Made by a program: the position numbers and the translations under genes
Notes under the pieces: model-generated
The model's input: the letters and a program-made list of their open reading frames with translations, nothing else
Told to the model about the DNA's origin: nothing
Database searches by the model: none
Assembly: GCA_965204745.1 (NCBI GenBank)
Contig: OZ242010.1
Span: 2,560,001 to 2,624,000 of the forward strand
Source of the DNA: Candidatus Latescibacterota bacterium
GTDB taxonomy: Bacteria > Latescibacterota > UBA2968
Length of the DNA stretch: 64,000 bases
Direction of reading: 5' to 3'
Shown here: positions 18,255 to 54,094 of the stretch, piece after piece
How the letters are laid out: every line of letters starts with the position of its first letter
Position numbering within the stretch: position 1 is the stretch's first letter

Positions 18255-18599
18255 GGGAGGAGAGTTGGCAGTAATCAGTTGGCAGTTGGCAGTCCCCACC
18301 CTTTCCCCCACAATGTATGTGCTAACCGATTGTTTTGCTGACTGCTAAGATACAAGAGGATCGGCGATGAGCGGTCAGTCCCAAACACCAAACCGTAGGG
18401 GCGATGGCCCCGTGCTCGCGAGGAAGGGGGAACTGTGAGCGATTTTGCGAGGGTATTGATGAGGGATTTTTAATCGCTTATGCCCTATCGGGACCTACCC
18501 CCTTGGCCCCCCTTCCTACAAGGAAGGGGGAACGAGGATCGGTTTTGCTACCGCGCTCAATCGGGACCTATCCCCGTTAAACAAAAGGAGATGATGAAC

Positions 18600-19727
18600 A
18601 TGGACAAAAGTCGGCAAATCTACGAAGACCTGGGCGTCGCGCCCGTGATCAACGCCGCGGGATATCAGACGCTCATCGGTGGGTCGAGGATCGGCCCAGA
18701 AGTGCAGGCCGCAATGGCGACCGCGAACCGCTATTTTGCGGACATGGAAGACCTGCTCAAAAAAACCGGGGCGATCATCGCGGACATCCTCGGCACGGAA
18801 GCCGCGCTGGTCACGCCCGGATGCGCGGCGGCATTGGCCCTTGCCTCGGCCGCGTGCATGTCGGGTAGCGATCCGCAAAAAATGGAACAACTGCCGGATA
18901 CCACGGGCGTGAAGCACCGCATTTTGATTCAAAAAAAACAGCGGTATCACTACGACCGCGTGCTGACCATCTTCGGGGCGAAGCTCGTCGAAGTCGGCGA
19001 TGAAACCGGCACGACCGCAGCTCAACTCGAGGCCGCCATTTCAGACGAGACCGCGGCCATCCACTATTTCGCGCCCGGGAATCAGGATGGCGTTTTGCCC
19101 GCCCAAGATGTGATCCGCATCGCGCATGCCAATGGCGTCCCGGTGATTGTCGATGCGGCGAGTCAGGTTTATCCGCTCGAGGTCATGCGCCGGTACCCAG
19201 ACATGGGCGCGGACTTGATCGGGTACGGCGCGAAATACATCGGCGCGTGTCATTCCACGGGCATTTTGTGCGGGCGCGCAGACCTGATTGACGCGGCGTA
19301 TCTGCACTCGTTCATCGGCTACGAGACCTGCCCCTACGACACTTTGGGCCGTCCGCTGAAGGTGGATCGCCAAGAAGTGATCGCGGTCGTCGTCGCCCTG
19401 CGCGAATGGTTCAGCGCGGATCACCAAGCGCGTTTGGCCTCGTACGAGCGCGAAGCCGAAGCCCTCCTCGCGGACTTGGCGGACATTCCCCACATTGCGA
19501 CCGCGGTTGCAACCGACGCGCGAAGCCTGAGCAATGGCGTGCAAATTACAGTGGATGAAGCCGCGCTGGGCAAAACCGCAGTGCAAATCATCGACGAACT
19601 CAAGCGGGGCAATCCGTCCGTGTGGGTGCGCGGCAGCGGAAATGCGTTTCGCGTCGCGGTGACCAATTTCATCGAAGACGACCGCGAAATCGTGGCATCC
19701 CGCCTGCGCGAAGTGTTGGCGAAGTAA
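18600..19727 (+). CDS. SelA-like / DgaE-family PLP-dependent enzyme
   Basis: AAGGAG RBS; LGVAPVINAAG, VIVDAAS, GADLIGYGAK (PLP lysine), GRPLKVDRQE. Confidence 0.85.
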   Translation: MDKSRQIYEDLGVAPVINAAGYQTLIGGSRIGPEVQAAMATANRYFADMEDLLKKTGAIIADILGTEAALVTPGCAAALALASAACMSGSDPQKMEQLPDTTGVKHRILIQKKQRYHYDRVLTIFGAKLVEVGDETGTTAAQLEAAISDETAAIHYFAPGNQDGVLPAQDVIRIAHANGVPVIVDAASQVYPLEVMRRYPDMGADLIGYGAKYIGACHSTGILCGRADLIDAAYLHSFIGYETCPYDTLGRPLKVDRQEVIAVVVALREWFSADHQARLASYEREAEALLADLADIPHIATAVATDARSLSNGVQITVDEAALGKTAVQIIDELKRGNPSVWVRGSGNAFRVAVTNFIEDDREIVASRLREVLAK

Positions 19728-19868
19728 GAGGTAAGAGGCAAGACGGGAGATGGAAGTTTAGCCACGAGCGGGGTACAACTAGCGATAGCCAGTTCAAAGG
19801 CACAAAAACACAAAAGACGATCAGTGTGTGTAGGGGCGATGCCCTCGTGCTCGCCCATCCGCCCCGCC

Positions 19869-20044
19869 GTGTCTGAATCGCGGATTAAACGGATTACGCA
19901 GATTGCGCGGATTACCCCACACCGCCCTACCACCTGTGCGTTCCCGTCCCGTCCCTACCCCGCCGCCCTGCGTGCCCGTCCGCGCCGCCCAACCGTGTCT
20001 GAATCGCGGATTAAACGGATTACGCGGATTACGCGGATTACCCC
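19869..20044 (+). repeat. Two copies of a ~50-bp GTGTCTGAATCGCGGATTAAACGGATTACGC repeat with 9-bp GGATTA periodicity
   Basis: Copies at ~19869-19917 and ~19995-20044; reverse-complement copies at ~35379-35430 and ~60390-60438; partial at ~50313-50330. Confidence 0.85.
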
Positions 20045-20106
20045 ACCGCCCAACCACCGCTTCATCGTTCCCATCCACTTCGCCCTTCGCACGCCCTGTC
20101 GCCATA

Positions 20107-20545
20107 GCCCTATCCCCCCGGTCCCCGTTATTCGCTTCGCTCATTGTAGGCTACGCCTGTGCCTACGAGGAAAGGGGGAGCGCATGGCTTTCTTGAAGGT
20201 TTGCATCCAGGGCTGTTTTGATGGCTTTGGGCGAATGGAGCACGCCATGCAAATCCAAAAACCCTTACACACAATCCCTCGCAAAACCTTTCGCCATTCC
20301 CCCTTCCTCGCAAGCCCTATCCCCCCGGCCCCCTTTCCTACAAGGAAAGGGGGAGCGCATGGCTTTCTTAAAGGTTTGTATCCCTGGCTGTTTTGATGGC
20401 TTTGGGCGAATGGAGCACGCCATGCAAATCCAAAAACCCTTACACACAATCCCTCGCACAACCTCTCGCCATTCCCCCTTCCTCGCAGGCACAGGCGTAG
20501 CCTACAACGAAGCGTAGCGAGTAACGGGGCCAGGGGGTAGGTCCC
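20107..20545. repeat. Modular palindromic REP/MITE-like element with internal ~180-bp tandem duplication
   Basis: CCCCCTTTCC..GGAAAGGGGG hairpins, GTAGGCTACGCCTGTG module, GGGGTAGGTCCC end; related to 35105-35311, 60128-60368, 62339-62752. Confidence 0.85.
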
Positions 20546-20598
20546 CCTCGCATGCCTTATCGCTTGACTGACCACCGATCCCACCGTCATTTTACCGC

Positions 20599-20628
20599 TT
20601 GACAAACAAGAGCGTAATGTTGTATTTT
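20599..20628 (+). promoter_or_regulatory. Putative sigma70 promoter of adhesin 1
   Basis: TTGACA-N18-TATTTT; paralogous adhesin 2 has TTGACA-N18-TAACTT in the same position. Confidence 0.5.
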
Positions 20629-20858: not shown

Positions 20859-20883
20859 CCCCCCCCCCCCCCCCCCCCCCCCC
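20859..20883 (+). repeat. Poly-C tract (C25)
   Basis: 25 consecutive C immediately upstream of the adhesin RBS/start. Confidence 0.95.
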
Positions 20884-20899
20884 TCGAGAGGGGGACAAA

Positions 20900-35097: not shown

Positions 35098-35104
35098 GGA
35101 ATTG

Positions 35105-35311
35105 GGACCTACCCCCTAGCCCCGTTACTCGCTACGCTTCGTTGTAGGCTACGCCTGTGCCTACGAGGAAGGGGGAAATGGCGAGAGGTTTTTTTGGGGT
35201 TCATGGCGTGATTCATTCGCTCAAAGCCATCAGAACAGCCAGGGATACAAACCTTCAAAAAGCCATGCGCTCCCCCTTTCCTTGTAGGAAAGGGGGCCGG
35301 GGGGATAGGTC
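35105..35311. repeat. Modular palindromic REP/MITE-like element
   Basis: GGGACCTACCCCC...GGGGATAGGTCTC inverted ends with two internal hairpins. Confidence 0.85.
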
Positions 35312-37969: not shown

Positions 37970-37979
37970 GGAGATCAGC

Positions 37980-38861: not shown

Positions 38862-38865
38862 GTGC

Positions 38866-38894
38866 TTGACGCCCTTTGGCAAAATGGGTAACTT
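38866..38894 (+). promoter_or_regulatory. sigma70 promoter of tRNA-Pro
   Basis: TTGACG-N17-TAACTT upstream of the tRNA. Confidence 0.65.
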
Positions 38895-38921
38895 GTCTGC
38901 CAACCAAAAAAGCTATCCGGT

Positions 38922-38998
38922 CGGAGCGTAGCGCAGCTCGGTAGCGCACCATCTTGGGGTGATGGGGGTCGCTGGTTCAAATCCAGTCGCTCCGACCA
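38922..38998 (+). tRNA. tRNA-Pro(GGG)
   Basis: CGGAGCG/CGCTCCG acceptor stem, CCATC-TTGGGGT-GATGG anticodon arm, GGTTCAAATCC T-loop, encoded CCA. Confidence 0.97.
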
Positions 38999-39008
38999 TA
39001 AAACAGCG

Positions 39009-39041
39009 GGGGCTATGCAACGCGGCATAGCCCCTTGTTTT
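39009..39041 (+). terminator. Terminator after tRNA-Pro
   Basis: GGGGCTATGC-AACGCG-GCATAGCCCC then TTGTTTT. Confidence 0.8.
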
Positions 39042-39168
39042 GTACTTGCCAAACCGCGGATGATATGATAGATAAAGACAACCTTTTCACAATCCGCCAC
39101 ACAAGGGTAAAAAAAATGTTCGAATCATCGAAGTTGTCGCCACATTTCCTCGAAAGGAGCGTTGTGCC

Positions 39169-40881: not shown

Positions 40882-40893
40882 GGAAGGAAGAGG

Positions 40894-40960
40894 GGAGAGG
40901 CAAGAGGCAAGACGTAAGAGGCAAGAGGCAAGAGGCAAGAGGTAAGAGGCAAGAGGTAAG
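40894..40960 (+). repeat. Heptamer array (GAGGCAA/GAGGTAA)n, insertion site of IS110
   Basis: Direct reading; inverted related units (GTCTTGCCTCT) lie beyond the other IS end at 42257-42340 in a 43-bp tandem duplication. Confidence 0.9.
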
Positions 40961-40976
40961 ATACTCTCTTAAAAGG

Positions 40977-41984
40977 TCAAGGGGTTTTCGGGGTGATTCG
41001 ATAGAATTTTTCGCCCTCAAAATCTTGGTCATGGCGCAACATGCCCCAGATCGAATGGAGCAACTTTCGCATCACCGCAACGATAGCCTGCAAAGGTTTC
41101 TTGCCGCGGGCGATGAGTTGGTCATAGAAGGCTTTGACATGGCCTTCGTGTCTGATGGCCACCCAGGCAGGCATATAGAGGGCATGGCGGAGGTACTTAT
41201 TCCCGGTTTTCGAGATGCGTCTTTGTGGATTGGCGGTTCCGGATTGTTTGGGTTTGGGATCCAGGCCTGCATGTGCGACCCACTGGGGCGGTTGCATCTC
41301 CTCTGGCAAAAGGGTCAACTCGGCCAAGAGCCGCAAGGCACTCGTTTGCGCGATGCCAGGCGTCGAGCAGAGGCGTTGGTAGGCACGCTTGAGGGGCTCA
41401 TCGTGCAAAACGAGATCGAGGGCTTGGCTTTCCAAGTATGCAATCCGGCGTTTGAAGTGTCGAATATTCACCTGAATATCGCGTGCGATGAGACGTGTGC
41501 TGCGGATGTGGTAGCTCTGCGCGTGGTTGCGGCTCTGTTCGCGGATGATCTCCTGCTTGAGTTGGTCAATGCGTCTGGTGAGGGCTTGCAGTTGAAGCCG
41601 TTGCTCGCTCGGCGCTTGCCAAGGCACAAAAGGCATGCGCTCGGCATAGTCGAGGATCAACAACGCATCCTTCGCATCCGTCTTCGCCCGTTGCATGCAG
41701 GCTTGGGCGTACTTGCTCATCGCTTTGGGATTGACGACCATGACCTTTGTGTGGCGATGCCGATGCAAGGCCAAGGCCACCCCCAAACTGTAAAGCCCGG
41801 TCGCTTCGAGGCACACAGAGACCATGTGCCCGCCCTTCGTGAGCCACTTCAGCAACCGCTTATGCGCTTGGGGATCATTGGCAAAGGTCGCTTGCATGAC
41901 AGCTTGTCCGGGTCTGGACAGGGCAACGGACAACGTGCGGGCACTGACATCAATGCCGGCAAAAGCGGGGTGAGATTTCGACAT
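40977..41984 (-). CDS. IS110-family DEDD recombinase/transposase
   Basis: CAGGAGG RBS; AGIDVS, CLEATG, KTDAKDA (DEDD), PGIA, AGLDP..QSG (catalytic Ser), ISKTGNKYLR, AVMRKL. Confidence 0.96.
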   Translation of the reverse strand: MSKSHPAFAGIDVSARTLSVALSRPGQAVMQATFANDPQAHKRLLKWLTKGGHMVSVCLEATGLYSLGVALALHRHRHTKVMVVNPKAMSKYAQACMQRAKTDAKDALLILDYAERMPFVPWQAPSEQRLQLQALTRRIDQLKQEIIREQSRNHAQSYHIRSTRLIARDIQVNIRHFKRRIAYLESQALDLVLHDEPLKRAYQRLCSTPGIAQTSALRLLAELTLLPEEMQPPQWVAHAGLDPKPKQSGTANPQRRISKTGNKYLRHALYMPAWVAIRHEGHVKAFYDQLIARGKKPLQAIVAVMRKLLHSIWGMLRHDQDFEGEKFYRITPKTP

Positions 41985-42054
41985 GGGGGCCTCCTGTGAT
42001 GAGGGGGTTGTAAGGGATCTGGTGCGCGCTCGGGGTCGCGTCCCGACCATTGAC

Positions 42055-42235
42055 GCCAAGTCTACCGGTCTTGTATATGCAGCCTCAAGGGGCTTAGATA
42101 CTCTTCGGCATAGACCCGGCGGTCGGGGGGCCTATCTTACCTACAAGGTCATCGCCTTCAAGAGGGGCCGGCCTTCCCCGAGCCGGGCATCAAGATGGCT
42201 TATCTCGATACGAGGGCGCAACTCCTAATTAACCC
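42055..42235 (-). ncRNA. Putative bridge RNA of IS110 (ends approximate)
   Basis: Two internal loops whose strands match the reconstructed target (CCCCTCT at 42161-42167, AGGTAAG at 42136-42142) and donor (AGAGTATCT at 42096-42104, ATACAAG at 42070-42076). Confidence 0.85.
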
Positions 42236-42700
42236 TTACTTCCAAGATACAAGAGGGGTGGCCTTCTCACGTCTTGCCTCTACCTTCTTACCTTTTTAAG
42301 GTGGCCTTCTCACGTCTTGCCTCTACCTTCTCACCTTTTTGGGTGTAGGGGCGTTGCCCCGTGCCTGCCCAAAGGCATGGGCTGACCTGCTGTTGGTCAG
42401 TATGCTTGTTGTTCAGCATCCAAGGAGTAAAAGCGAGAGGCGAGAGGGCCATTACGGTCTTCTCGCCTTTTGCGTACTGAATAAAGTCATTTCAGTTTTT
42501 GAAGGGCTTTTGCACAGGTTTATTTTTTTTGGTCGCGTTGCGTGGGTTGCAGAGTTCAATACCCACTGGGGTAAATGTCGCCATCCATGCTTGCTCGATC
42601 TCAGGATCTTTTGTGGGCCACTTTTCGATAAAAATGACCCACAACGAATTTTGTGGGACATAAATGTCCAACAAAACCCGCGCTGATGTGTAAATCAGCA

Positions 42701-43174
42701 TCAAAACACCTCGTGTCCCTCCACGACATTGACGAGTTCAAAGAACGCCAGAACGTTTGATCTCCGGCCGCTTCCGCGAAAAATTACCCGCAGAACATCT
42801 CCTTTGCACAAGGCGTCCAGAATCCGGCGTGCTGTCTTTGCCGGAATGCCCGCTTCGGCAACAAAGAGCGAACTCGAAAAGACCGGACGCTCAAATTGAA
42901 TGTCGTCGCGGCGTTCGGGCGACGCCATCTCTCGTCCCGCCTCAAATTCCAACACCTCGCCCATCGTGGCTTGCGTGCCTTCAATGCGCGAGGACAGCAC
43001 GGCCTCTCGAGTCGTGAGCGGCGAGCGTAAAACGCCGGGGTTCGGGATGGCAGAAAGCATGCCGTCGTAACGCGCCACCGCCCCGGCCGCCGGGCCGATC
43101 AGTAGAATCAGCACTTGCCAGTCAAGGTTTGCGGGGGGAAACTGCCCCGCGTGGTAATGGATTGCTACCATCAT
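42701..43174 (-). pseudogene. Internally deleted Fic-family gene
   Basis: Fic N-terminus (AVARYDG..EAVLSSRIEGTQAT) joined directly to a C-terminal wHTH; HPFxDGNGR catalytic core absent. Confidence 0.75.
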
Positions 43175-43424
43175 CGCGCCCTTCGGACAATGCGAACTGA
43201 CCGATGAGTTATTCTGCAAATCGAGTTATCTTTCAAAGTTCGGGTTTCATCATACTCAGGGTTTGCCATTTCTTCAAGGACTTTTTTGATTTTCGCCCCA
43301 GCTTGATCGCCATGCATGTTTTGGCATTGCAACGCATTTGGGTTTGTCTTATTATTTTGACGACTTCGCCTCCCGTCCGCATTAGGGGTAGATATTTGCA
43401 CGATACAACTGTGGAGTTGAGAAA

Positions 43425-44822
43425 ATGAAAATACGAATAAAAAACCTCGGAATCTTAAAGCAGGCTGAATTTTCGCTGGGCGATTTGACCATCATCTGCG
43501 GCGAAAATAACACCGGCAAAACGTATATGGCTTACGCGCTGTATGATTTCTTACGGTCTTGGCACGAATTTATCCCTGTTCCGGTAAGCGATGCCCAGAT
43601 CCAAAATTTGATTGCAGACGGTGTCCTCAATATCGGATTAAAACAATATGTCAAAAAAGCCGATCAGATGCTCGCGGCGGCATGCGGGAAGTACAAGGAT
43701 AAACTGGACGCTGTTTTTGCAGCACCCGAAGGCAGGTTTGATAACAGTGAATTTCAAATTCAGGTAAAAATTCCCGATGATATTTTACAAAAAGAAATAA
43801 CAGGAAACACGCCGTTCATTACCTTTTTAAAGAGAAAAGGGTATGAAGAATTGATGGTTACTTTAGAAGAAAAAAAACAAGAAAAAAATAGGGATTCCTT
43901 TATTCAGAGCATTCAAAAAGCCGCATATATAGAAAGGTTCATTGGTTTGATTATCAGTAGGGTTATTTTTGGTGATTCCTTTCCCCGGCCCTTTATCGCT
44001 TCAGCCGAGCGCACTGGCGTAGCTATTTTTCGCAAAGAATTGAATTTTGCCCGCAACCGCCTGCTTGACGAAATAGCCCAAGCAGAAAAAAAAATTGATC
44101 CGAGACAGTTGCTATTCAAAGAGTACCAAAATTACCCTTCGCCAATAGAAGCCACTGTGGAATTTACGCGCCAACTTGAAGATGTTGCAAAAAGAAAAAG
44201 CTTTATCACGAAAGAACACCCGGAAGTGTTGGAAGACTTGGCCGATATTATAGGTGGGGATTACAGTCTGCTACAAAATGACCGACTCTACTATAAACCC
44301 AAAGGGACGCGGGTTTGGTTGACGATGGTCGAGAGTTCTAGTGCGGTGCGTTCATTGCTGGATATGGGGGTTTATCTGCGCCATGTCGCTCAAAAGGGGG
44401 ACCTGTTGATGGTAGATGAGCCGGAGTTAAACCTTCATCCAGAAAACCAACGCCGCATTGCCAGGCTGTTTGCGCGGCTGGTAAATGTGGGGGTAAAGGT
44501 CTTTATCACCACCCACAGCGATTACATCGTCAAAGAACTGAATACCCTCATCATGCTCAATCACGACAAGCCACACCTAAAAAGAATTGCCGAAGAAAAC
44601 GGCTATCGGGATGTCGAATTGCTCAGGCCAGATCAGATCAAAGTATATACGGCTCAAGAGGCGTTGATGCCCTTAGAAGAAGGGCAAAAGAGACGCCGCA
44701 GAGGTCACACACTCGTGGCGGCTGAAATTGACCCCGAACTCGGCATTGAGGCCCCTAGCTTTGACGAGACGATTAATGACATGAACAGGATTCAGGAAGA
44801 CATTATTTGGGGAGCGGAGTAA
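43425..44822 (+). CDS. ABC-type ATPase (AAA_15/AAA_21-like)
   Basis: IKNLG, Walker A GENNTGKT, AERTG, SSSAVRS signature, LMVDEPELNLHP, ITTHS; AT-richer than flanks. Confidence 0.9.
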   Translation: MKIRIKNLGILKQAEFSLGDLTIICGENNTGKTYMAYALYDFLRSWHEFIPVPVSDAQIQNLIADGVLNIGLKQYVKKADQMLAAACGKYKDKLDAVFAAPEGRFDNSEFQIQVKIPDDILQKEITGNTPFITFLKRKGYEELMVTLEEKKQEKNRDSFIQSIQKAAYIERFIGLIISRVIFGDSFPRPFIASAERTGVAIFRKELNFARNRLLDEIAQAEKKIDPRQLLFKEYQNYPSPIEATVEFTRQLEDVAKRKSFITKEHPEVLEDLADIIGGDYSLLQNDRLYYKPKGTRVWLTMVESSSAVRSLLDMGVYLRHVAQKGDLLMVDEPELNLHPENQRRIARLFARLVNVGVKVFITTHSDYIVKELNTLIMLNHDKPHLKRIAEENGYRDVELLRPDQIKVYTAQEALMPLEEGQKRRRRGHTLVAAEIDPELGIEAPSFDETINDMNRIQEDIIWGAE

Positions 44823-44827
44823 GCGGC

Positions 44828-45379
44828 ATGGAAGATATTGAAATATTGCGAGAAATGCTCATCGCCGATGTTCGAGTTCCGCTACAACCGAGGCAGGGTA
44901 GGCCGGCTGTTGAACTTACAGATGAACAGAGCAAAACAATTGTGGAAATAAAAGGGCTACCTCATGACTCTGTTGTTATCAAAGCGGAGGCTTTTGAAGG
45001 CCCTCTGAACATCTTTCGAGGTTCAAAAATGGAACGCAGGCGGGCTGATTTTGTGATTGTATCCAATGAGGATACAAAGAAGTGGATTGTCTGCATTGAA
45101 ATCCAAGCGGGGAATAGCAAAAAGGCAACGCACATTAAAGCGCAATTAAAAGGCGCGCAATGCTTTATGGGTTACTGCAAATGTATCGGAAGGTCATTTT
45201 GGGAATCGAAAAATTTTCTCGACAACTACCAATACCGGTTCGTGTGCATGGCAAATATCAACCAGGACAAAAGACCGACACGTCCCAATAGGCAACCATT
45301 ACACGACAGCCCCGAGAAGTTTCTGAAACTTCCTGGCAACGCTCACCATTTTAATAAATTGATCTGGCGAGAATCTTGA
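44828..45379 (+). CDS. Putative PD-(D/E)xK-fold nuclease, partner of the ATPase
   Basis: RRADFVIV...CIEIQ...QLKGA pattern; 5 bp downstream of ATPase stop. Confidence 0.65.
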   Translation: MEDIEILREMLIADVRVPLQPRQGRPAVELTDEQSKTIVEIKGLPHDSVVIKAEAFEGPLNIFRGSKMERRRADFVIVSNEDTKKWIVCIEIQAGNSKKATHIKAQLKGAQCFMGYCKCIGRSFWESKNFLDNYQYRFVCMANINQDKRPTRPNRQPLHDSPEKFLKLPGNAHHFNKLIWRES

Positions 45380-45401
45380 TGGCCCTGCCTCAAAGGAGTC
45401 A

Positions 45402-46521
45402 ATGACCATGACATTACAAGCGGGAATCGTTGGGTGCGGGAACATCAGCCGAAGCCATGCAGCAGCTTATACAGGCTTGAACGATGTGGCCCTCGTCGCG
45501 ATGTGCGATGTGGATGTCGAGGCATGCAAGACGCGCGGAGACGAACATGGCGTGCGTGCATGCTACGCGGATTACGAGGAGATGTTTGCGGCGGAAAATT
45601 TGGATCTCGTCAGCATTTGCACCCACGCGCCCCTGCACGCGCCCATTGCCATGGCCGCTGCAAAAGCCGGCGTTCACGTTCTGTGTGAAAAGCCCTTGTC
45701 CATTGATCTGCAAAGTGCCGATGCCATGATCGCGGCCTGTCGCGAGGCCGAGGTGCGACTGGCCGTGAGTCACCAATATCGGTTTAGCCCGCTGTATCGG
45801 CGCGCCAAGGCCTGGATCGCATCAGGGCGGATCGGCCAGTTGCGCGCCATCCGCGAGATCGGCAAGGGCCGCGAGGCGGGTTTCGAGTTGATGGAAATGG
45901 GGGTTCACTACTTCGACGAGATGGATTTTTTTATGGAGGGCATTGCGTGGGTTCACGCGCAAATCACCTATCGGGGCCGTGAAGCCGGCGTTGAAGACAT
46001 CATGCACAGCAGCGAATTGTGCAAGACAGACCGGCGCGACAATGGCATGGTCGCCGGCGACGCGATGATGATCCATGTAGGCGGACGGGATGGGACTTCG
46101 GGGATGGTCGAACTCTACCGCCGCACGTCTCGAGCAGGGTGGCTGGCAGGCCCCCACATTTTAGGGGATGAGGGGCAGATGATGATCAAACCCAATCCCA
46201 CGAGCGGCAGGGTCGAAATGTGGTATTGCCCCTTTGACGTGTCATTCGCGGCCCACACGCCGCAATGGGAGCAGGTGGAACTAGAAGCGGAAGCCTTTGT
46301 CATTGATGGCAAGGCATGGCCTGCCCTGCATTCGATCTGGAGCGTGCGAGATATGGTACGCGCCATCCGAGAAGGCCGGCAACCCGAACGAACTCGGCGG
46401 CGCGAAAGCATGCGTGTCCTTGGCGTGCGTCAGTGCGGTGTACGAGTCGCACTTCACCGGCAGGCGAGCCTATTTGCCGCTGCGAGACCGCAGCCATCCG
46501 CTCGTCGCACGGCTGCGATGA
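45402..46521 (+). pseudogene. Gfo/Idh/MocA oxidoreductase with frameshift near 3' end
   Basis: GIVGCGNIS, HVLCEKP; CGAA duplication at 46385-46392 shifts the frame, natural tail (LGGAKACVSL..AVYESHFTGRRAYLPL) continues in another frame to TGA 46521. Confidence 0.8.
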
Positions 46522-46536
46522 GGAAAGCCGCAAGAC

Positions 46537-48192
46537 TCATAGCAAGCACACCTTGGCTTGTAATTCATCCACGAGGACTTTTTGGTTCTCCGAATAATCC
46601 ACGGGGATGTCGACGACATGCACGCCGCCGGTGGCGTAGCACTGGGTCAGCAGGGGGGCGATCATTTCCGTGGCGGTTACGCGGTGCCCGTGCGCGCCGT
46701 AGCTCTTGGCGTAGGTGACGAAATCCGGGTTGCCAAATTCCAGACCAAAATCCGGAAGCCCCATGTCGTATTGTTTCCAGCGAATCATGCCGTACGCATC
46801 GTCTCTTAAAATCAGGACGACGAGGTCGAGGTCGAGGCGGACAGCGGTTTCCAACTCTTGGCTGTTCATCATAAACCCCCCGTCGCCGCAAATCGCCATC
46901 ACCCGTCGGTGGGGATAAAACCGCGTGGCCTCAATGGCCGAGGGCAATCCCGCGCCCATCGTCGCCAAGGCATTGTCTAACAGCACGGTATTGGGTTGCG
47001 TGGTGGGGTAGTTGCGCGCAAACCAGATTTTGTACACGCCGTTGTCCAGCGCGATGATGCCGTCTTCGGGCATGGCTTTTCGCACGTCCCAAACCAAGCG
47101 TTGGGGCTTGACCGGAAAGCCGTTGTCGTCTTCGCCGATGTGAATGTGTTCTTGGATTTGTTCGCGGATACGCATGTAATAGTCAAAATCGTGCGCCTCG
47201 GTTTTGCCGGCTCTGTCGGCGAGGCGGCGCATCGTGTTGGCAATGTCGCCCACCACTTCCAGTTGTGGAAAATACACATTGTCCACCACCGCGGATTTGA
47301 AGTTGATGTGGATCACGCGGGTTGCCCCCTCATCGTGCGACATGAAAAAGGGCGGCTTTTCCACCACGTCGTGCCCGACATTGAGGATCAGATCTGCGCG
47401 GTCAATGGCGCAGTGGAGATAGTCGCCATCGGACAATGCCGCCGTGCCCAAATACAGGGGATGGCGGTCGCCCACAACGCCCTTGCCGAGTTGGGTATTG
47501 AAAAAGGGAATGCCGGTTTTGTCGAGAAAGCGCGCGATGGATTCCCAGATGCGCTTGCGATTGGTGCCCGCGCCCAAGAGCATCAAGGGCCGCACGGCGT
47601 CTTTGATCATGTCCACGGCATTGTCAATGGCGCGGTCATTGGCGTCCCCGCGCAAGCAAGTGCTGATGTTGAAGATCGGCGTGGTGTGTTCGTCGACGGG
47701 CTCTAACGCCACATCTTCCGGCAATTCCAGATGCACGGCCCCCGGGCGTTCTTCTTGTGCGAGCCGAAATGCCTCCCGCACTATCGAGGGGATCATGCCC
47801 ACATTGACAATTTGCCGGGTGTACTTGGTCAGGGGTTCCATCATCCGCACCACGTCGATGATCTGAAATTGGCCTTGCTTGCTCTTTTTGATCGGCTTTT
47901 GGCCCGTGATCATGAGCAAGGGCATGCCGCCCAACTGGGCATAGGCCGCGCCGGTCACAAAATTGGTCGCGCCGGGCCCGAGGGTGGCAAGGCAAACGCC
48001 GGCCTTCCCGGTCAGACGCCCATAAGTCGCCGCCATAAACGCCGCGCCCTGTTCGTGCCGCGTCAAAATGAGTTGGATGCGCGATTTGCGAAGGGCCTCG
48101 AGAAAAGCGAGATTTTCTTCGCCCGGCACCCCGTAAATATGCGTCACGCCTTCGTTTTCCAATGCTTTGACAAACAAATCCGAAGCGTTCAT
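46537..48192 (-). CDS. ilvB: Acetolactate synthase large subunit (ThDP enzyme)
   Basis: GVPGEEN, RHEQGAAFMA, TLGPGATN, GDGGFMMN ThDP motif; no small subunit adjacent. Confidence 0.9.
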   Translation of the reverse strand: MNASDLFVKALENEGVTHIYGVPGEENLAFLEALRKSRIQLILTRHEQGAAFMAATYGRLTGKAGVCLATLGPGATNFVTGAAYAQLGGMPLLMITGQKPIKKSKQGQFQIIDVVRMMEPLTKYTRQIVNVGMIPSIVREAFRLAQEERPGAVHLELPEDVALEPVDEHTTPIFNISTCLRGDANDRAIDNAVDMIKDAVRPLMLLGAGTNRKRIWESIARFLDKTGIPFFNTQLGKGVVGDRHPLYLGTAALSDGDYLHCAIDRADLILNVGHDVVEKPPFFMSHDEGATRVIHINFKSAVVDNVYFPQLEVVGDIANTMRRLADRAGKTEAHDFDYYMRIREQIQEHIHIGEDDNGFPVKPQRLVWDVRKAMPEDGIIALDNGVYKIWFARNYPTTQPNTVLLDNALATMGAGLPSAIEATRFYPHRRVMAICGDGGFMMNSQELETAVRLDLDLVVLILRDDAYGMIRWKQYDMGLPDFGLEFGNPDFVTYAKSYGAHGHRVTATEMIAPLLTQCYATGGVHVVDIPVDYSENQKVLVDELQAKVCLL

Positions 48193-48576
48193 AAGTTCCC
48201 CTTTGCGTTATGGCTTCACCGCCACCGCCGCACAGAGTTTGTGGTCGTGCGGTTGTATATTATCACAAATTTCCAAATATACGGAAAACTTTGAAAAAAA
48301 TTAGGGAATTATATACTTAACGAAACGAGGATATGTTGTTATATTCCTCTAAGCAACTGGTTAAAGGGGAAGCAAAGGGCATTGGGTTGATCCAAGTATA
48401 TAATCCCCTATTTTTATTTTTCAAAAAATTATTTTGGAATTATCGGGACCTACCCCCTAACTTAGTTATCCGCTCCGCTATGCTCGGGGTATATGAGGTT
48501 TAACCTGCGAAAAGCGAATGCTTTTGTGACTATTCAAGTTATCTCAGTACGTCGGGTTTTGGGGCTGTTGTGCGGA

Positions 48577-48656
48577 CTGGACTGACTGACACTGACCACT
48601 GACTACTGACTACTGACCACTGACCACTGACTACTGACCACTGACCACTGACCACC
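48577..48656 (+). repeat. Heptamer array (CTGACYA)n
   Basis: Direct reading; opposite-orientation arrays at 49939-49979, 53055-53180, 62156-62226. Confidence 0.9.
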
Positions 48657-48673
48657 AATACGGAGATATCCAA

Positions 48674-49936
48674 ATGTCCGATACACACCCGGGGCTAATC
48701 GCGCCCCACGGCGGTTTGGCGACACCAGTCAATCGCACGGTTGCAGATGTCGAATCCTTTTTGACCGAGGCGTGCAAATTGTCGCGCATTTTGGTCAGCG
48801 ATGCCGATTTGTCCTCGGTGTATCGCTTTGGCGATGGCGGGTTGAGCCCGCTCACCGGGCCGATGGACGCACAGACGTATCATCGGGTGCTGGATGAAGC
48901 GGTCATTGAAGTCGATGGCACGCGCTATGCGTGGACCATTCCCATCTCCTTGCCCGTGCGCGCCGATGTTGCCAAAACCCTCTCTGTTGGGCAACGCGTC
49001 GCGCTGGAAAACAGATCTGGCGAGATCGTGGCCGCGCTGGATATCAACGACATTTTTGAATGGGACAAACCCACGTACCTCGAGCGCGTTTATTTGACCG
49101 AGCGCACGGATCACCCTGGCGCGGATATGGCGTTGCACGGCGATGCGGACAAGACCCACCTCTTGGGCGGCGAGATTCAAGTGCTTCCCCAACCGCGCAA
49201 TCCGCATTTTGGACAATACGTGCTCGGTCCGCGCGAAGTCAGACGCGCATTGGCACGCAAAGGCTGGGCCCGCGTCGTGGCGTTTCAAACGCGCAATGCC
49301 CTGCACCGGGCGCACGAATACGCGCTGGTCTATGGTTTGGAAACCCTGTTGCGCCAAGGCCACAACGCAGGAGCCTGCCTCAACCCGCTGGTGGGCGAAA
49401 CCAAATCGGACGACGTGCCCGCCGATGTTCGCATGCAAACCTACGAAGCCCTGATCGCAGAGCGGGGGTTGGGCGAGGGCGATAGCGATGCGGCCCTGTG
49501 GGAAGCGCGCGGGGAATCCGTCTCGGACCGGGTGATCTTGTTGGGCTTGGATATCAAGATGTTTTACGCCGGCCCCAAAGAAGCCGTAATGCACGCGATC
49601 TACCGGCAGAACTTTGGATTTACCGACATCATCATCGGCCGCAAGCACGCAGACGCGCCCTATCACGACGGCAGCGCGATTTGGGGGGATTTCGATGCCC
49701 AAGCCATTTTCGATCACCTCGACGGCGACCTACAGATCCAACCCGTGAACGTGGGATTCGCCGCTTATTACGAGTCCATTGGCCGCGTGGATTTAATGGA
49801 ACACCACGCCGATGAAACGCCGGTCTTCATCTCCGGCTCGCAAGTGCGCGAGACCCTCGGCAAGGGCGAGCAAGTCGATCCCCGCATCATGCGCCCGAGC
49901 ACATCCGAGATTTTGAGCAGAGCGATGAAGGGGTAG
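48674..49936 (+). CDS. sat: Sulfate adenylyltransferase (ATP sulfurylase)
   Basis: [53 protein letters not shown]. Confidence 0.93.
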
Positions 49937-50379
49937 GGATCAGTAGTCAGTAGTCAGTAGTCAGTTGTCAGTTGTCAGTCCCCACACCGCCCTACCGCAT
50001 TCCCCAACCGCCCGTGCGTGCCCAGCCGCTCTAACCATCCACCCGTGCGTGCCCGTCCCGTCCCCACCCCGCCGTGTGCGTGACCCACCGCCCTGCCGCC
50101 GCTTCATCGTTTCCCTCGCAAAACCTCTCGCCATTCCCCCGTCCTCTCCTGTGCATGCCCATCTCATCTCGCCCTTTTGTGTTTTGAACTGGTTGTACCC
50201 CGCTCGTGCCTTTGAACTGGCTGTCGCCAGTTGTACCTCGCTCGTGGCTAATCGCATCTCTCCTCTTGTATCTTTCCACAGGGGCATCGCCCGCCATCTC
50301 TGTCGGTTGGGAATTGCGCGGATTACCCCCTCCGCTTTTGGTCCGATCCTTTTCTGCGCCCTTCGCCCTACCTTCGTCC

Positions 50380-51681
50380 TCAATCCGCGATCCGCCTCTG
50401 CATGCACGCGGCAAAAACGCCATCATTGCCGGTTTGGTGGGGTAGCAGTTGGAGGTGGGGATGGGTGAGGTGAAAGTGTGGGTGGTCGCGCAAAAAGGCT
50501 TCGACAACGCGCTCGTTTTCTTCGGGTTCGAGGGTGCAGGTACTGTACACGAGGACGCCGCCCGGGGATACGAACTGGGTAGCGTGGGTGAGGAGGGTGC
50601 GTTGCAGGCGTGCGAGTTCCGGGATATCCGATGCCCGGCGGTGCCAGCGCAGGTCCGGATGGTGGCTGAGGATGCCCAAAGCAGAACAGGGCGCATCGAT
50701 GAGCACGCGGTCAAACAGGCGGTTGAGGGCCAAACGCCGCGCATCGGTTGCGATGGGATGGACGCAGGTGATGCCGAGCCGATGCACGTTTTGCTTCAGG
50801 ATGTCGAGCCGGGACCGAAAGCGGTCCGCGGCGAGGATAAAACCGCGATTTGCCATGCGTTCGGCCATGGCCATCGTTTTGCCGCCCGGCGCGCTACACA
50901 AATCGAGAATGGCCTCTCCGGGTTGCGGATCGAGCAGGGGAACGACCAGTGCCGCGCCCGCGCCTTGCACGCTGAACAGGCCATTGCAATACGCACGGGT
51001 TTGAAAGAGATGGCCCGCATGGGATACGGCGAGGAGATGGGGGCCGGCAACTCGCGCGTCAATCCCTTCAGCTACGAGGTGTTCGCGCAACGCATCGGCC
51101 GATGTTCGCAACGCATTGGGGCGGATGGTGAGGGCGGGTTGGGCATTGTTGCTTTCGCACAAGGCGTGCGTTTCATCCAGGCCATAGCGGTCGACCCAGC
51201 GTGCGACGAGCCACTGCGGATGGGATGTGGTGAGGGCGAGGTGTTGGATGGGGTCGATTTGGGGATCGGGAAAGACGATGGGGTTGCGGTTTTCAGCCAC
51301 GCCGCGCAAGACCGCATTGACCAACTTGGCGATGCGTGCGCCGAGGAGGTGACGGGCGAGGGTGACGGCTTCCGAGACGACCGCATACGCCGGCACGCGG
51401 TCGAGGTGCTGGAGTTGGTACGCGCCCAAGCGCAGGAGATTGCGTAATTTGGGATGCTGTTTGGACAGGGGTTTGGCGAGATAGGCCGCGAGGGCGTGAT
51501 CCAACCGCGCCCGATAGGTCAGCGTGCCCATCACGAGGTGGTGCAACAAATTGCCGTCGCGTGCGGGGAGTCGCCCGCGCTGCACGTCAATCAAACGATT
51601 CGCGTACGCGCCCCGTTCAACGCGGCAGAGAATATCGAGCGCGAGATGGCGCGGATTTTTGGACGCAACAGACAAATTCAC
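50380..51681 (-). CDS. rsmB: 16S rRNA m5C967 methyltransferase
   Basis: NusB-like N-terminus (LRLGAYQL, LVNAVLR), DLCSAPGGK, DAPCS, VYSTCT. Confidence 0.93.
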   Translation of the reverse strand: MNLSVASKNPRHLALDILCRVERGAYANRLIDVQRGRLPARDGNLLHHLVMGTLTYRARLDHALAAYLAKPLSKQHPKLRNLLRLGAYQLQHLDRVPAYAVVSEAVTLARHLLGARIAKLVNAVLRGVAENRNPIVFPDPQIDPIQHLALTTSHPQWLVARWVDRYGLDETHALCESNNAQPALTIRPNALRTSADALREHLVAEGIDARVAGPHLLAVSHAGHLFQTRAYCNGLFSVQGAGAALVVPLLDPQPGEAILDLCSAPGGKTMAMAERMANRGFILAADRFRSRLDILKQNVHRLGITCVHPIATDARRLALNRLFDRVLIDAPCSALGILSHHPDLRWHRRASDIPELARLQRTLLTHATQFVSPGGVLVYSTCTLEPEENERVVEAFLRDHPHFHLTHPHLQLLPHQTGNDGVFAACMQRRIAD

Positions 51682-52994
51682 TTCCCGCTAAACGCCACAT
51701 TCTCAAACACCAATGTGGGCGTCCGCATGCTGGAATAGGCATTGGGATCATCGCCCACGGCAACGAGATTTTGCAGCAGGTCGAGGAAATTGCCCGCGAT
51801 GTTCATTTCGGACACGGGGCCTGTTTTCCTGCCGTTGGCAATGCGGAACCCACGAAACCCGTAAGAAAAATCCCCGGTCGTGGCGTCGGCATTGCCGCCG
51901 AGCCAAGACGTGACGTGAAAGCCGTTTGTCACCTGCGAGATCAGGGCGTGGAGGTCGTTGTCCCCGGGCGCGAAAACGAGGTTGGACGACGTGCCCGTCG
52001 TGGGTTGCCAGCCGAGTTTGCGCGCGTAATACGTGTCGATGTAATACGTTTGCAAAACGCCCTGATCGATGATGGGCACGCGCTTTGCCGAAATGCCTTC
52101 GCTGTCGTAATGCCGAGACGCAGGCCCGCGCACCAGCAGGGGATCGTCCGTCACGGTGAGGAGCGAACTGGCGATTTGCGCGTCTTTCTCGTCCGCTAAA
52201 AACGAGCGGTTCTGCTGGATGCTGCGCGCTTGCAACGCCCCCCAAATCGCGCTGATCAACCGGCCGCCGGCTTCGGGATCGACCACCATAGTGGCCCGCA
52301 CGCTCGGCACTTTTTCACTGCCCAACCGGGACAAGGCGCGGTGCAAGCCCTGTCGCGCAACGGTTTGGGGATCCGGCAAATCCGACAAATGGCGCGCCCG
52401 CACGTACCGGTGATCTTCCGGCCGGCCGTGCGCGCCCTCTTTGAGCGTCACACTCGCGCCATAGCCTATTGACGTGCCGCGTTGCGTGCCCGAAAATCCA
52501 TTTGAACTCGCCCGCGCTGACGTGTGCCAGCCATAGTACACATCGGCGGTCGCGCTGACCACGCGGTCGTCTGCGTGCGTGATGGCGTCCATTGTCTTGA
52601 GCCAATCCACACACGCTTCGCGGGGCAAATCGCGGATGGTGGGATCGTCCGATTGCAGATCGACATCCGGGCGATTTTCGTACAGCACGGGATCTGGAAT
52701 CACGCGAAAGGGATCCTCGGCCAAGTGCCGCGTGAGGGCCACCGCGTCGTCGACAAATCGGGCCACAGACTCAGGGCGCAAATCCGTGGTCTGATGCGTG
52801 GAATAACGCCCATCGACATACAACTGAATGCCCATGCCGCGACTCGCGCTCTGTTGCACTTGCTCGATGTTCCCGTCTCGATACGAGTATTCCGTGCTGT
52901 TTTCATCGCGCACCCGAGCCACCGCATCATCGGCCCCGGCCCTTCGCGCCTGCTCAACCGCCTGCTCCGCGCGTCTGAGAAGTTCCCGTTCCAT
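51678..52994 (-). CDS. pmbA: TldD/PmbA-family protein (PmbA/TldE-like)
   Basis: DDP..GPASRHYDSEG, TGDFS, EMNIAGN; no HExxH motif, so the non-catalytic subunit type. Confidence 0.85.
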   Translation of the reverse strand: MERELLRRAEQAVEQARRAGADDAVARVRDENSTEYSYRDGNIEQVQQSASRGMGIQLYVDGRYSTHQTTDLRPESVARFVDDAVALTRHLAEDPFRVIPDPVLYENRPDVDLQSDDPTIRDLPREACVDWLKTMDAITHADDRVVSATADVYYGWHTSARASSNGFSGTQRGTSIGYGASVTLKEGAHGRPEDHRYVRARHLSDLPDPQTVARQGLHRALSRLGSEKVPSVRATMVVDPEAGGRLISAIWGALQARSIQQNRSFLADEKDAQIASSLLTVTDDPLLVRGPASRHYDSEGISAKRVPIIDQGVLQTYYIDTYYARKLGWQPTTGTSSNLVFAPGDNDLHALISQVTNGFHVTSWLGGNADATTGDFSYGFRGFRIANGRKTGPVSEMNIAGNFLDLLQNLVAVGDDPNAYSSMRTPTLVFENVAFSGK

Positions 52995-53394
52995 AATATC
53001 CCTCTTGTAGCACATACATCGCCTTGGGGTGGCAGGGTGGGGACTGACTACTGATAGTAGTCAGTTCCCCACCTGACCCCACCGCCCAAGTAGTCAGTGG
53101 TCAGTCCCCGCCCACTCCCCACCGCTGACAGTAGTCAGTCCCCACCTGACCCTACCGCCCAAGTAGTCAGTGGTCAGTCCCGCCCACTCCCCACCGCTAT
53201 GTTCGTTAGAATTAGACAACTGACAATGCGAATTAAGAGTAGAAAGCGAGTAAGAAGCAAGCCGCGGTCAATCATCCAAAGACATGAACGAGTCATCCAT
53301 TATAGAATTGCCCTTGAACTTGTCTTAAAACGAACGATGGATGCCCCTCCTCCGGCTCTTTCCCGCAACGGAGAGATGTTATTCCCCCTTGTAT

Positions 53395-54094
53395 CTTCCT
53401 CGTAGGCACAGGCGTAGCCTACAACGAAGCGTAGCGAGTAACGGGGCTAGGGGGTAGGTCCCAATTCCAAAAAGTAAAGCCTGAGTTCCCTGTGAACCCG
53501 GGCTTTACTTTTTTTGTTTTTCGTCGTTCAGCCTGTCGAGCCAAAGTCGGCGACGAAGATGAGGAAATCGGAGAATCCAATCTCGCCATCGCCATCGCAC
53601 CGGGGGTCATATCGCTCCTGACCGAGCCGCGATCCGAACTTATCCGCAAAGGTCAAGAAGTCGGGCGAAATTCACATCGGCATCTTCATCTGTGGCGGTC
53701 AGGGAACAGGCTTTCATTGGAAGTGGGAGGCGGGATAGAGGCTTCGGATGTAGGGTTCAATTTCTTGAGCGGTCGTGCGCGTAGCAGTTGGCTCGATGAC
53801 GTTCCCTCTGAGGAGGGCCTCGTTCCGGAAGAAGAGGACGTATCGAATGATCAGGATTATATCCGAGAACAGCCTCACATCGCCATCGCCATCCACATCG
53901 AGAATGTTCTGATTGACCAACGTGTCGAGGTAGGGTTCAATTTCTTGAGCGGTCATGCGCGTGGCAGTTGGCTCGATGACGTTCCCTCTGAGGAGGGCCT
54001 CTTCCCGGAAGAAGAGGACATATCGAATGACCAGGATTATATCCGAGAACAATCTCACCCGGCCATCGCCATCCACATCCAAGTTGGCACTCGG
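53395..54094 (-). repeat. Inverted copy of 34457-35171 (adhesin tail, dockerin relic, terminator, REP end)
   Basis: Near-identical coding tail PSANLDVDGDG...YIRSLYPxSHFQ plus homologous downstream DNA. Confidence 0.92.

Follow-up and report, generated by a model that had tools for sequence, protein, structure and literature searches.

Does a short motif left in intergenic repeats record the past visits of a mobile element? The window analysed here, 64,000 nucleotides of a Candidatus Latescibacterota genome (contig OZ242010.1, positions 2,560,001 to 2,624,000), raises this question because the 10-mer CTTGTATCTT, which forms an IS110's left junction at 42244-42253 (minus strand), recurs at 18347-18356 (minus), 50265-50274 (plus) and 53388-53397 (plus). 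An earlier note on this DNA had claimed that these recurrences lack any IS body and had proposed that they are excision footprints. The positions were confirmed, as was the claimed 13-nt identity, AAGATACAAGAGG being found at both 18347-18359 and 42244-42256. Four copies of the 10-mer stand against 0.02 expected in the window (none of 100 shuffles reached four), and four copies of the 9-mer CTTGTATCT against 0.17 expected.

The IS110 element and its guides

The element is a bridge-RNA-guided IS110, with recombinase domains, CT cores, a two-loop RNA and co-variation between guides and flanks. It is IS621-like, 1291 bp long and located at 40961-42251 (minus), with limits common to the 52 full copies in the genome, which are 88.6-100% identical, look active and are flanked by CT on each side in 52/52 cases. 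The left end starts with TGTATCTTGGAAG at 42251 (minus) and the right end terminates with AAGAGAGTAT at 40961 (minus). The left CT core at 42252-42253 (minus) is a target-derived copy, and the right core lies at 40959-40960 (minus); in every one of the 52 full copies the left junction is ...T-CT-TGTAT and the right one AGAGTAT-CT, the latter followed by T(A/G)CC, TACT, CACC or CCCG. The insertion target is an array of CTTGCCT/CTTACCT heptamers (40880-40958, minus), and most of the 52 copies have right flanks of this kind. The recombinase gene (40977-41984, minus) encodes 335 aa with matches to PF01548 (DEDD_Tnp_IS110, E 1.2e-24) and PF02371 (Transposase_20, E 4.8e-20). PF01548 has 57 matches in the genome, and this IS is its only IS110-type gene family.

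The bridge-RNA region (41990-42251, minus) was folded with RNAalifold from nine subfamily sequences into two stem-loops, each with an internal loop; Rfam has no family matching it. The guides CCCCUCU/AGGUAAG and AGAGUAUCU/AUACAAG sit in loops of this consensus fold. At the DNA level, the left target guide CCCCTCT (42161-42167, minus) reads in the sense of the left flank, CCCCT-CT, and co-varies with it across subfamilies, and the right target guide AGGTAAG (42136-42142, minus) is the complement of CT-TACCT and co-varies with the right flank. Such co-varying pairings were found in at least seven subfamilies across this genome (G000) and those of two further species (G016 and G018). The left donor guide AGAGTATCT (42096-42104, minus) equals the right end plus core and is constant among subfamilies except for a AGCGTATCT variant, and the right donor guide ATACAAG (42070-42076, minus) is the complement of CT-TGTAT. 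With the donor being AGAGTAT-CT-TGTAT and the guides co-varying with the flanks, the solo motif can be read as a core, the 5-nt right donor arm and a second core. Element limits 7 bp further in were considered and ruled out, since the right donor guide places TGTAT inside the element. The left end, TGTATCT, also holds the second GTATCT pointed out earlier, which is matched exactly in the right end, AGAGTATCT. Neither IS copies without their first 7 bp (CCTCTTGGAAGTAAGGG) nor the right-end/left-end circle junction AGTATCTTGTAT had any match in the assembled genome.

Solo motifs across the genome and its relatives

In the 5.48-Mb genome, CTTGTATCT occurs 231 times against 11-25 expected (Markov orders 1-4), far from the background level that the earlier note had asked about. 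The reversed motif occurs 13 times, single-mismatch variants 1-72 times each, and the right-end-type counterpart CTAGTATCT once. The 231 copies comprise 55-56 IS left ends, ~25 chance-like copies and ~150 solo copies; those outside IS ends number ~175, and the flank statistics below use 174 solo copies. The motif is otherwise a singleton and not arrayed, with one tandem double, CTTGTATCTTGTATCT, in G000 and another in G018 (locus L013). Among the relatives searched, G016 has 276 copies and G018 has 306, compared to 5-79 in the other 28, and IS right ends number 55 in G000, 7 in G016 and 20 in G018 compared to 0-3 in the others. The motif is at background in the 12 relatives from other families and scarce across most of the genus. 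Enrichment is confined to the clade carrying the IS621-like element. A link between the motif and the IS110 is likely.

The suspicion that the motifs are collapsed assembly junctions from which full IS copies were dropped was not borne out, and we regard such an artefact as exceedingly improbable. The genome is a single contig in which 52 full IS copies were assembled, a contig from an independent run (X3, record 7, 50217-51098, no gaps) spans the motif at 50265 without an indel, the same motif context is present in the genomes of two further species, and a residue of exactly 7 bp is not what a collapse would produce.

The copy at 53388-53397 (plus) interrupts a REP-like A|B junction, TTCCCC-CT-TGTAT-CT-TCCTCG. 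The repeat at 53381 reads TTATTCCCC-CT-TGTAT-CT-TCCTCG, whereas sister copies at 20465-20490 (plus; ~20480, genome position 2580480) and 35155-35180 (minus; ~35168, genome position 2595168) read TTCCCCCTT-CCTCG without the 7 bp, which confirms the clean insertion at a CT described previously. The insert is present in 15 of 146 copies of the A|B family, and the 53388 copy is one of 11 near-identical members of a subfamily that inherited it. Mapped on the family tree, the insert requires five changes, at least three of them forced by well-supported branches. Elsewhere, a unique tandem paralogue (1417026) displays another clean 7-bp indel, CATGT-CT-CACCT versus CATGT-CTTGTAT-CT-CACCT. The insert is seen at CT dinucleotides, and more than once independently. 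It also sits, at least once, exactly on a target programmed by a bridge RNA, as three old IS remnants have target loops (guides (U)CCCCCU and (U/C)AGGAAG) that specify the A|B junction TTCCCC-CT-TCCT. IS left-end remnants were found at this junction at 921770, 1263485, 1433016 and 2089460, and a right-end remnant at 5088583. Occupied, empty and scarred states are all seen, only among paralogous repeat copies. The occupied alleles that the earlier note had hoped for in relatives were not found: at no site did one genome carry the IS where another carried the scar, intergenic DNA from the nearest species could not be aligned, orthologous G016/G018 regions do not align across motif sites, and in orthologous comparisons composite blocks are wholly present or absent rather than being units bounded at the motif.

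Most solo copies have a different setting. About two thirds in G000 (~99-116 of ~175) lie at the 5' edge of one hairpin repeat; the same placement is seen in G016 and G018, three species in all. In the window, the motif at 50265-50274 (plus) borders a degenerate REP-C hairpin repeat, TTCCACAGGGGCATCGCCC, on its 5' side, and that at 18347-18356 (minus) likewise borders a third repeat, AGCAGTCAGCAAAACAATCGG..., from a family of 10 in which the exact motif occurs in two members and a degenerate one in two or three. The hairpin bodies are nearly alike with or without the motif, which is absent from 48 of 138 good copies, 17 of these 48 reading CT-T(T/C)GGGCG directly. On a hairpin tree built from just 32 columns, motif state changes 29 times, compared to 36.9 in shuffles. 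Given this placement, most copies are not separate insertion records. The insert copies the IS end and mostly borders hairpin repeats, and as such it marks recombinase-linked events.

When the flanks of the 174 solo copies were compared to target loops, as had been suggested, the outcome was mixed. The A|B junction agrees with an old subfamily's target, and the left flank is within one mismatch of CCCCT in 60 of 174 copies (2.1% for CT sites overall), but the right flank is IS-target-like in only 10 of 174. A T follows the motif in 89%. The canonical targets of the resident elements are nearly free of the motif: CTTGTATCT followed by T(A/G)CCT occurs twice in G000 (versus 52 IS copies), followed by CCCGT once in G018 (versus 20), and followed by TTTCT once in G016 (versus 7).

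Possible origins of the insert

We tentatively favor, at slightly less than an even chance, the explanation that CT-TGTAT-CT derives from the end of the resident IS621-like element by insertion followed by nearly precise loss. The insert consists of a CT core, the 5-nt right donor arm (left-end bases 1-5) and a second CT (bases 6-7). A full element would insert at a CT and then be lost between its two direct GTATCT(T) repeats, either through the recombinase, with the pseudo-site in the left end standing in for the left donor arm as a half match (an "LD-only" partial circle), or through host slippage between the repeats; either route would leave X-CT-TGTAT-CT-Y. The earlier proposal of excision at a pseudo-core is upheld as to the composition of the insert, a core plus left-end bases 1-7; as to the agent, recombinase action and host slippage are indistinguishable. 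Most of the ~150 copies would later have been multiplied or retained along with the REP-like repeats that they border. This explanation draws on the identity with the IS end, the enrichment, the clean indels, the A|B target, the tree, the left flank, the co-occurrence by clade and other IS remnants of this genome (2459527 and 2972812) that were made by deletion at 3-4-nt microhomologies, with precedents in one-arm partial circles, half-match recombination and the alternative circles of ISPpu9. Against it stand the right flanks, the nearly motif-free canonical targets, the lack of IS copies without the first 7 bp and of an occupied/scarred orthologous pair, the near-identity of hairpin bodies with and without the motif, and the placement at hairpin 5' edges in three species, which fits the motif as part of the repeat unit. 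The premise that IS110 excision is scarless is out of date: preprints from 2025-2026 report half-match recombination, partial circles and excision in which mostly one strand is copied out and the donor site left intact, the last of which also speaks against this explanation, as does an in vitro LT-RT product ~34-fold rarer than LD-RD.

An excision footprint may be one of three routes to the insert. It is also conceivable, if somewhat unlikely, that the motif is a working left end and that REP-like hairpin units edged by CT-TGTAT are moved in trans by RD-only half-match recombination; such units would resemble the ssr9 passenger of ISPpu9, with bare 7-bp inserts as the zero-cargo case. A 53-copy G016 subfamily, CTTGTATCT-TGCCTTT-TCGGGCG...CCCCTACGTTTCTATCCTCGCAT-CT-T, agrees with this, as in the 20 loci inspected similarity begins exactly at the motif, with unrelated left flanks, and ~60% terminate in ...CGCAT-CT-T. 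At five sites (778454, 950644, 1124174, 2602245 and 2860770) the IS adjoins a left flank of the GAGAAGGCCACCCCT-CT family, which elsewhere adjoins motif plus hairpin (e.g. 2994855), and at 2089401 an IS left end has a motif-plus-hairpin unit joined to it at an internal CAT-CT-T site. Y1/RAYT genes are lacking from the genome, whose sole IS110-type family is this IS, and ssr9-only circles and reintegrating RD-only partial circles provide precedents. In contrast, no passenger accompanies the insert in the A|B, D-type and 1417026 cases, which consist of the 7 bp alone, the right end of the hairpin unit (CTCGCAT/ATCCCAT) agrees with AGAGTAT, the left donor arm, at only 3/7 positions by eye, and the motif-free hairpins and the composite orthologous blocks described above do not fit motif-bounded units. 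A direct micro-transfer, in which no full IS ever occupies the site, the pseudo-site 7 nt into the left end replaces the true right end in a two-step "direct transfer", and second strand transfer at TGTAT-CT copies TGTATCT alone into a new CT site, is very unlikely. A target-like left and a non-target-like right flank would fit a first step led by the left target guide, the direct-transfer preprint reports ~10-fold higher activity for the LT-RD to new-LT step than for the one that follows, and the two tandem doubles are in keeping with it; the pathway is described for full cargo only, and a 7-nt transfer is without precedent in the IS110 transfer and partial-circle literature examined.

Alternatively, the motif could be native to the repeat mosaic, as a variant heptamer CT(T/C)G(T/C)AT or a small signal such as the -10-like TATCTT, with the IS end resembling it because the element adapted to the 7-nt arrays rather than making them. 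We consider this unlikely. The target arrays do consist of 7-nt units (5 nt plus CT) to which the IS ends are alike (AGTAT-CT, TGTAT-CT), related units are found (CTCGCATCT, 50 copies; CTCGTATCT, 40; CTTGCATCT, 38), the hairpin association is kept in three species, and by our own count the left-end TATCTT would fall 18 nt after the right-end TTGACC and form a circle-junction promoter. However, TGTAT is also the right donor arm of IS621 in E. coli and was thus not copied from this clade's repeats. The motif's singleton state, the discrete 7-bp indels that it forms between paralogues collinear in all other respects, and its low numbers outside the clade likewise argue against a native unit.

A further, quite doubtful possibility is that the bridge recombinase can move nothing smaller than the CT-flanked right donor arm, with CT-TGTAT...CT segments from 7 nt up to hairpin units copied by one-armed (half-match) recombination, such that IS110 spreads REP-like repeats. 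If so, IS110 would be the engine of that spread where RAYT is lacking and would shape the clade's 7-nt-periodic intergenic mosaic. If the residue is only a slippage product carried by repeats, the case is an ordinary one. Bridge recombinases are under development for genome editing; their half-match recombination and partial excision were first described in 2025-2026, mostly in vitro. At least seven naturally re-targeted bridge RNAs are found here alongside ~150 end-derived 7-bp residues and 52 active-looking copies; such a genome would offer a fossil record that goes beyond clean insertion, could serve as a test bed for whether the left-end pseudo-core causes by-products, and might account for the spread of REP-like repeats where RAYT is lacking.

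Comparison with known systems

The repeats resemble REP/REPIN sequences in being GTAG-headed, GC-rich intergenic hairpins, present in ~140-210 copies. Unlike REP/REPIN with RAYT, they have no cognate Y1 (RAYT) transposase gene: PF01797 had no match in the genome (97.65% completeness), while control genomes were positive, and a REP/RAYT system was rejected. In the nearly precise excision of Tn10 and Tn5, host slippage between short direct repeats inside the element leaves a remnant of its end; here the repeat would be just 6-7 bp, GTATCT(T), and the remnant just 7 bp.

Half-match recombination and partial circles of IS110 (bioRxiv 10.64898/2026.08.31.748434 and 10.64898/2026.08.14.744561) likewise involve CT cores that recombine when only one arm matches, partial excision products that retain one canonical donor arm, and fragments that reintegrate. 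These preprints report circles and off-target insertions rather than 7-bp or genome-wide residues, and the smallest element in them is ~800 bp. In Pseudomonas putida, the IS110 transposase of ISPpu9 moves the non-coding module ssr9, and duplicate end boxes of ISPpu9 give alternative circles; its crossover at AG is CT on the opposite strand, as here. By the standard of ssr9, which has both end boxes (core plus both donor arms), the candidate passenger has the right-donor-arm side, CT-TGTAT, only, and many inserts are bare 7-bp ones.

The closest likeness is to IS621 of E. coli, with its two-domain recombinase (PF01548 and PF02371), CT core, 5' non-coding RNA with target and donor loops, and insertion into short intergenic repeats. 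Compared to the IS621 donor arms as printed in the methods of a preprint (ACAGTAT.CT.TGTAT), the right arm TGTAT is identical and the left arm AGAGTAT agrees at 6/7 positions. Unlike IS621, the element has no detectable DNA similarity to E. coli genomes and targets 7-nt tandem arrays instead of REP heads, and here it is present in 52 copies and at least seven naturally re-targeted subfamilies.

Copies and contexts of the motif

The motif that the earlier note had singled out, a 7-bp insert at CT reading CT-TGTAT-CT, is present in the window as CTTGTATCTT at 18347 (-), 42244 (-), 50265 (+) and 53388 (+), four matches where 0.02 were expected (for the 9-mer, 4 versus 0.17). At 42244 the motif forms the left junction of a minus-strand, IS621-like IS110 element (window 40961-42251, -), and the three solo copies, those outside IS110 left ends, represent one repeat type each. 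Genome-wide, CTTGTATCT occurs 231 times against 11-25 expected under Markov orders 1-4, and the reversed pattern 13 times. Sorted into context classes of our own, the 231 copies comprise 55 at IS left ends (with one more within the class "other"), 99 at the 5' edge of the hairpin repeat REP-C, T(T/C)GGGCGAGCACGGGGGCATCGCCCCTAC (by eye, about 17 degenerate ones more lie within "other"), 16 at the A|B junction of a second, REP-like repeat, four before a third repeat, nine before heptamer arrays and 48 others, about 25 of which look unique, as many as expected by chance.

Judged by sequence, the left flanks of the motif resemble the left target of the IS: 60 of 174 lie within one mismatch of CCCCT, compared with 2.1% of 243,011 CT sites. 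A T directly follows the motif in 89%. On the right side, only 10/174 flanks match TACCT or TGCCT with at most one mismatch.

Among 138 good REP-C copies, the motif is present with at most one mismatch in 82 and at most two in 8, and is lacking in 48, 17 of which read directly CT-T(T/C)GGGCG; the repeat body is nearly alike with and without it. A REP-C tree required 29 changes versus 36.9 for shuffles, and, being built on 32 columns and not resolved, was left out as evidence for separate gains. The link between motif and hairpin repeat recurs in relatives: counts of CTTGTATCTT(T/C)GG are 92 in this genome (G000), 106 and 205 in the nearest species (G016 and G018, respectively) and 3 in another relative, G001. 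G016 has 53 more copies of CTTGTATCT-TGCCTTT-TCGGGCG; at the 20 such loci inspected, similarity starts at the motif and the left flanks are unrelated, and approximately 60% of the inspected units finish in ...CCTCGCAT-CT-T. Reading the motif as a passenger end is an unlikely account of it on our estimate. No Y1/RAYT transposase gene was found in the whole G000 genome, which harbors two abundant families of GTAG-headed hairpin repeats of about 140-210 copies each.

The IS110 element and its bridge RNA

The G000 genome, one contig of 5,482,115 bases with 56.5% G+C in which the window spans G000:C1:2560001-2624000, contains 52 full copies of the IS by BLAST (identity 88.6-100%) as well as remnants. 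All 52 show the layout X-CT-[TGTAT...AAGAGAGTAT]-CT-Y, in which X is chiefly TCTCCCCT and Y chiefly T(A/G)CCTCT; the insertions therefore fall within arrays of 7-nt units. The 335 aa product matches DEDD_Tnp_IS110 (E 1.2e-24) and Transposase_20 (E 4.8e-20), and every one of the 57 genomic matches to PF01548 comes from this one IS family.

The target arrays are tandem 7-nt units (5 nt + CT), a form shared by the IS ends, and are found at window 40880-40958 and genome-wide. Counted as CT.....CT words, CTTGCCT occurs 758 times, CTCACCT 532 and CTTACCT 341. Arrays vary between species at orthologous sites, as at locus L030, where G018 carries an array and an IS and G000 carries neither. At G000:C1:1121583-1124189 two IS copies stand in direct tandem with only TACCT-CT between them, and the orthologous place in G016 (locus L078) reads CCAT-CT-TACCT without an IS. 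A direct repeat of about 45 bp (GGTGGCCTTCTCACGTCTTGCCTCTACCTTCT.ACCTTTTT, twice) adjoins the IS left junction at window 42254-42343, and the left-flank family with this repeat bears the IS at five genome sites. When the IS ends are joined as in a circle (window 40961-41000 and 42240-42251, -), the right-end TTGACC lies 18 nt before the left-end TATCTT, which, on sequence grounds, looks like a candidate junction promoter; such a promoter would account for the left end keeping TATCTT and hence its second CT. One IS subfamily has TATGTT in place of TATCTT.

In the consensus fold of nine subfamily sequences, the stretch from the left end to the start codon contains two stem-loops, each with an internal loop. 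CCCCUCU, in the same sense as CCCCT-CT, and AGGUAAG, the complement of CT-TACCT, lie in the first loop; the second carries AGAGUAUCU, equal to the right end plus core, and AUACAAG, the complement of the core plus TGTAT. The second loop is constant, and the first-loop guides co-vary with the flanks: UCCCUCU/AGGUGAG occurs with TCCCT-CT-CACCT, CGCCUCU/AAGUAAG with CGCCT-CT-TACTT, ACGGGAG with CT-CCC(G/T)T, UCGCCUCU/AGGGAG with CGCCT-CT-CCCGT (in G018) and UCCUCCU/AGAAAAG with CCTCC-CT-TTTCT (in G016). This pairing of guide and flank is the published bridge-RNA logic. At least seven subfamilies of one IS, differing mainly in the two target-loop guides that match their own flanks, present a case of natural re-targeting (window 41990-42251, -; G000 copies at 1297030, 602776, 921766, 1263481, 845541 and 3989011; loci L018 and L034). 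Rfam returned no bridge-RNA family, its sole hit being a chance miRNA (E 0.98), and distant blastn against E. coli genomes gave no match for the IS.

The guide and donor-loop matches make TGTAT part of the element; merely empty targets is not what the solo motifs are. A placement of the IS limits 7 bp inward, under which the solo motifs would be empty targets, was rejected on the evidence of the donor loop, with ATACAAG as the complement of CT-TGTAT, and of the target-loop guides CCCCTCT/AGGTAAG.

The motif as a 7-bp insert in paralogues, and comparison with relatives

In several settings the motif is an insert. The A|B family carries the additional 7 bp in 15 of 146 copies, the others reading TTCCCC-CT-TCCTCG. 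In three old IS remnants (921766, 1263481 and 1433012) the target-loop guides are (U)CCCCCU and (U/C)AGGAAG, so that the programmed site is exactly TCCCC-CT-TCCT. The A|B junction is occupied by IS left-end remnants, and at 5088583 a right-end remnant adjoins TCCTCGCAGG. Paralogues of one programmed target thus include empty, occupied and 7-bp states. In a unique tandem paralogue of 90% identity, CATGT-CT-CACCT becomes CATGT-CTTGTAT-CT-CACCT. A spanning paralogue was available for 127/177 solo sites, and seven gap columns fall at the motif in 28, several of which are alignment noise.

On a tree of 75 A|B copies, built after the 7 bp had been taken out, the insert requires five changes, at least three of them forced by starred branches (shuffles averaged 13.9, and 0/500 were as low). 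Eleven of the 15 carriers, window 53388 among them, belong to one near-identical group, so the insert at 53388 was probably inherited.

Motif counts are 231 in G000, 276 in G016, 306 in G018 and 5-79 in 28 other relatives; the corresponding tallies of IS right ends are 55, 7, 20 and 0-3. The motif and the IS are found together in one clade, and because the three genomes are kin this amounts to one observation. In an orthologous comparison with G016 and G018, whose genes are about 90% identical, we mapped the flanks of 27 IS copies and of 20 motif sites to G000; at syntenic places the intergenic DNA is non-alignable or whole composite blocks differ. Among these 27 IS and 20 motif loci, no pair of occupied and scar alleles was found. 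Locus L012 in G018 (G018:C1:672000-672700) has CRISPR-like spaced repeats at bases ~505-700 (GTTTCAATCCGCTCCCCTCACTGATG.AAGGGGAGAT).

Public sequencing runs were compared as contigs, four of them against window 36500-56400, and showed no 7-bp polymorphism at the covered places; a contig from an independent run confirms the motif at 50265. Contigs of runs X3 and X9 are about 99% identical to window 36500-56400, so close strains are present in public data, and sponge-metagenome-labelled runs are among the sources. In one contig of X9, 40924 is directly followed by 42299, so that 1374 bases including the IS are missing; another strain may thus carry an IS-free allele here, although the flanking repeats make this join ambiguous.

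Origin of the motif

Summed over routes, a link of the motif to the IS110 machinery is very probable. The specific excision route is unproven: among single explanations, the scar from alternative excision that the earlier note proposed ranks first, at somewhat short of an even chance, and it cannot directly account for the majority of copies, since these are carried along with repeats. Were the motifs residues of canonical insertions of the resident IS, each genome's motifs should precede its own right target, and they do not, with two such cases in G000 (T(A/G)CCT), one in G018 (CCCGT) and one in G016 (TTTCT). In the G000 genome no IS copy is missing the initial 7 bp, and TGTATCT follows no right end. 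Two IS mini-remnants are joined at 3-4-nt microhomologies, one (G000:C1:2459527-2459560) consisting of the 16-bp TGTATCTTGGAAGTAT adjoining a tandem double motif and the other (G000:C1:2972654-2972850) of the first ~190 bp, which include the greater part of the bridge-RNA region and are fused to GTATCT. Host deletion between the GTATCT(T) repeats, which measure 6-7 bp, is hence a viable route. We consider a micro-transfer origin of the motif very improbable. As the readable record of past insertions that had been envisaged, the motif is poor.

Recent IS110 work, in the portions of the papers covered here (PMC13626964, 10.1101/2025.10.25.684509, PMC12288879, PMC11208160 and the three preprints cited below), reports excision mostly as single-strand copy-out, with donor arms alone sufficing and with in vitro target-arm (LT-RT) junctions about 34-fold rarer than donor-arm (LD-RD) ones. 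The same literature describes a two-step direct-transfer pathway, a passenger RNA gene in ISPpu9 along with circles of alternative kinds, insertion at one-arm-matched sites and partial circles with one canonical donor arm that can reintegrate (both 10.64898/2026.08.31.748434 and 10.64898/2026.08.14.744561), and a target-side stem-loop as second specificity determinant (10.64898/2026.03.19.712850). These reports make it plausible that a pseudo-site is used and that CT sites next to hairpins are preferred. Those portions describe no 7-bp residue, and the available text of PMC13626964 has no match for "scar" or "imprecise". Among the papers searched, none contains both "TGTATCT" and "IS110"; supplements, which lie outside such a search, may carry IS621 ends and off-target lists. 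The motif merits a bench test for what it offers as a naturally occurring example of half-match by-products and of natural bridge-RNA re-targeting. The donor of the IS, AGAGTAT-CT-TGTAT, is close to that of IS621, ACAGTAT.CT.TGTAT, as given in the methods of a preprint.
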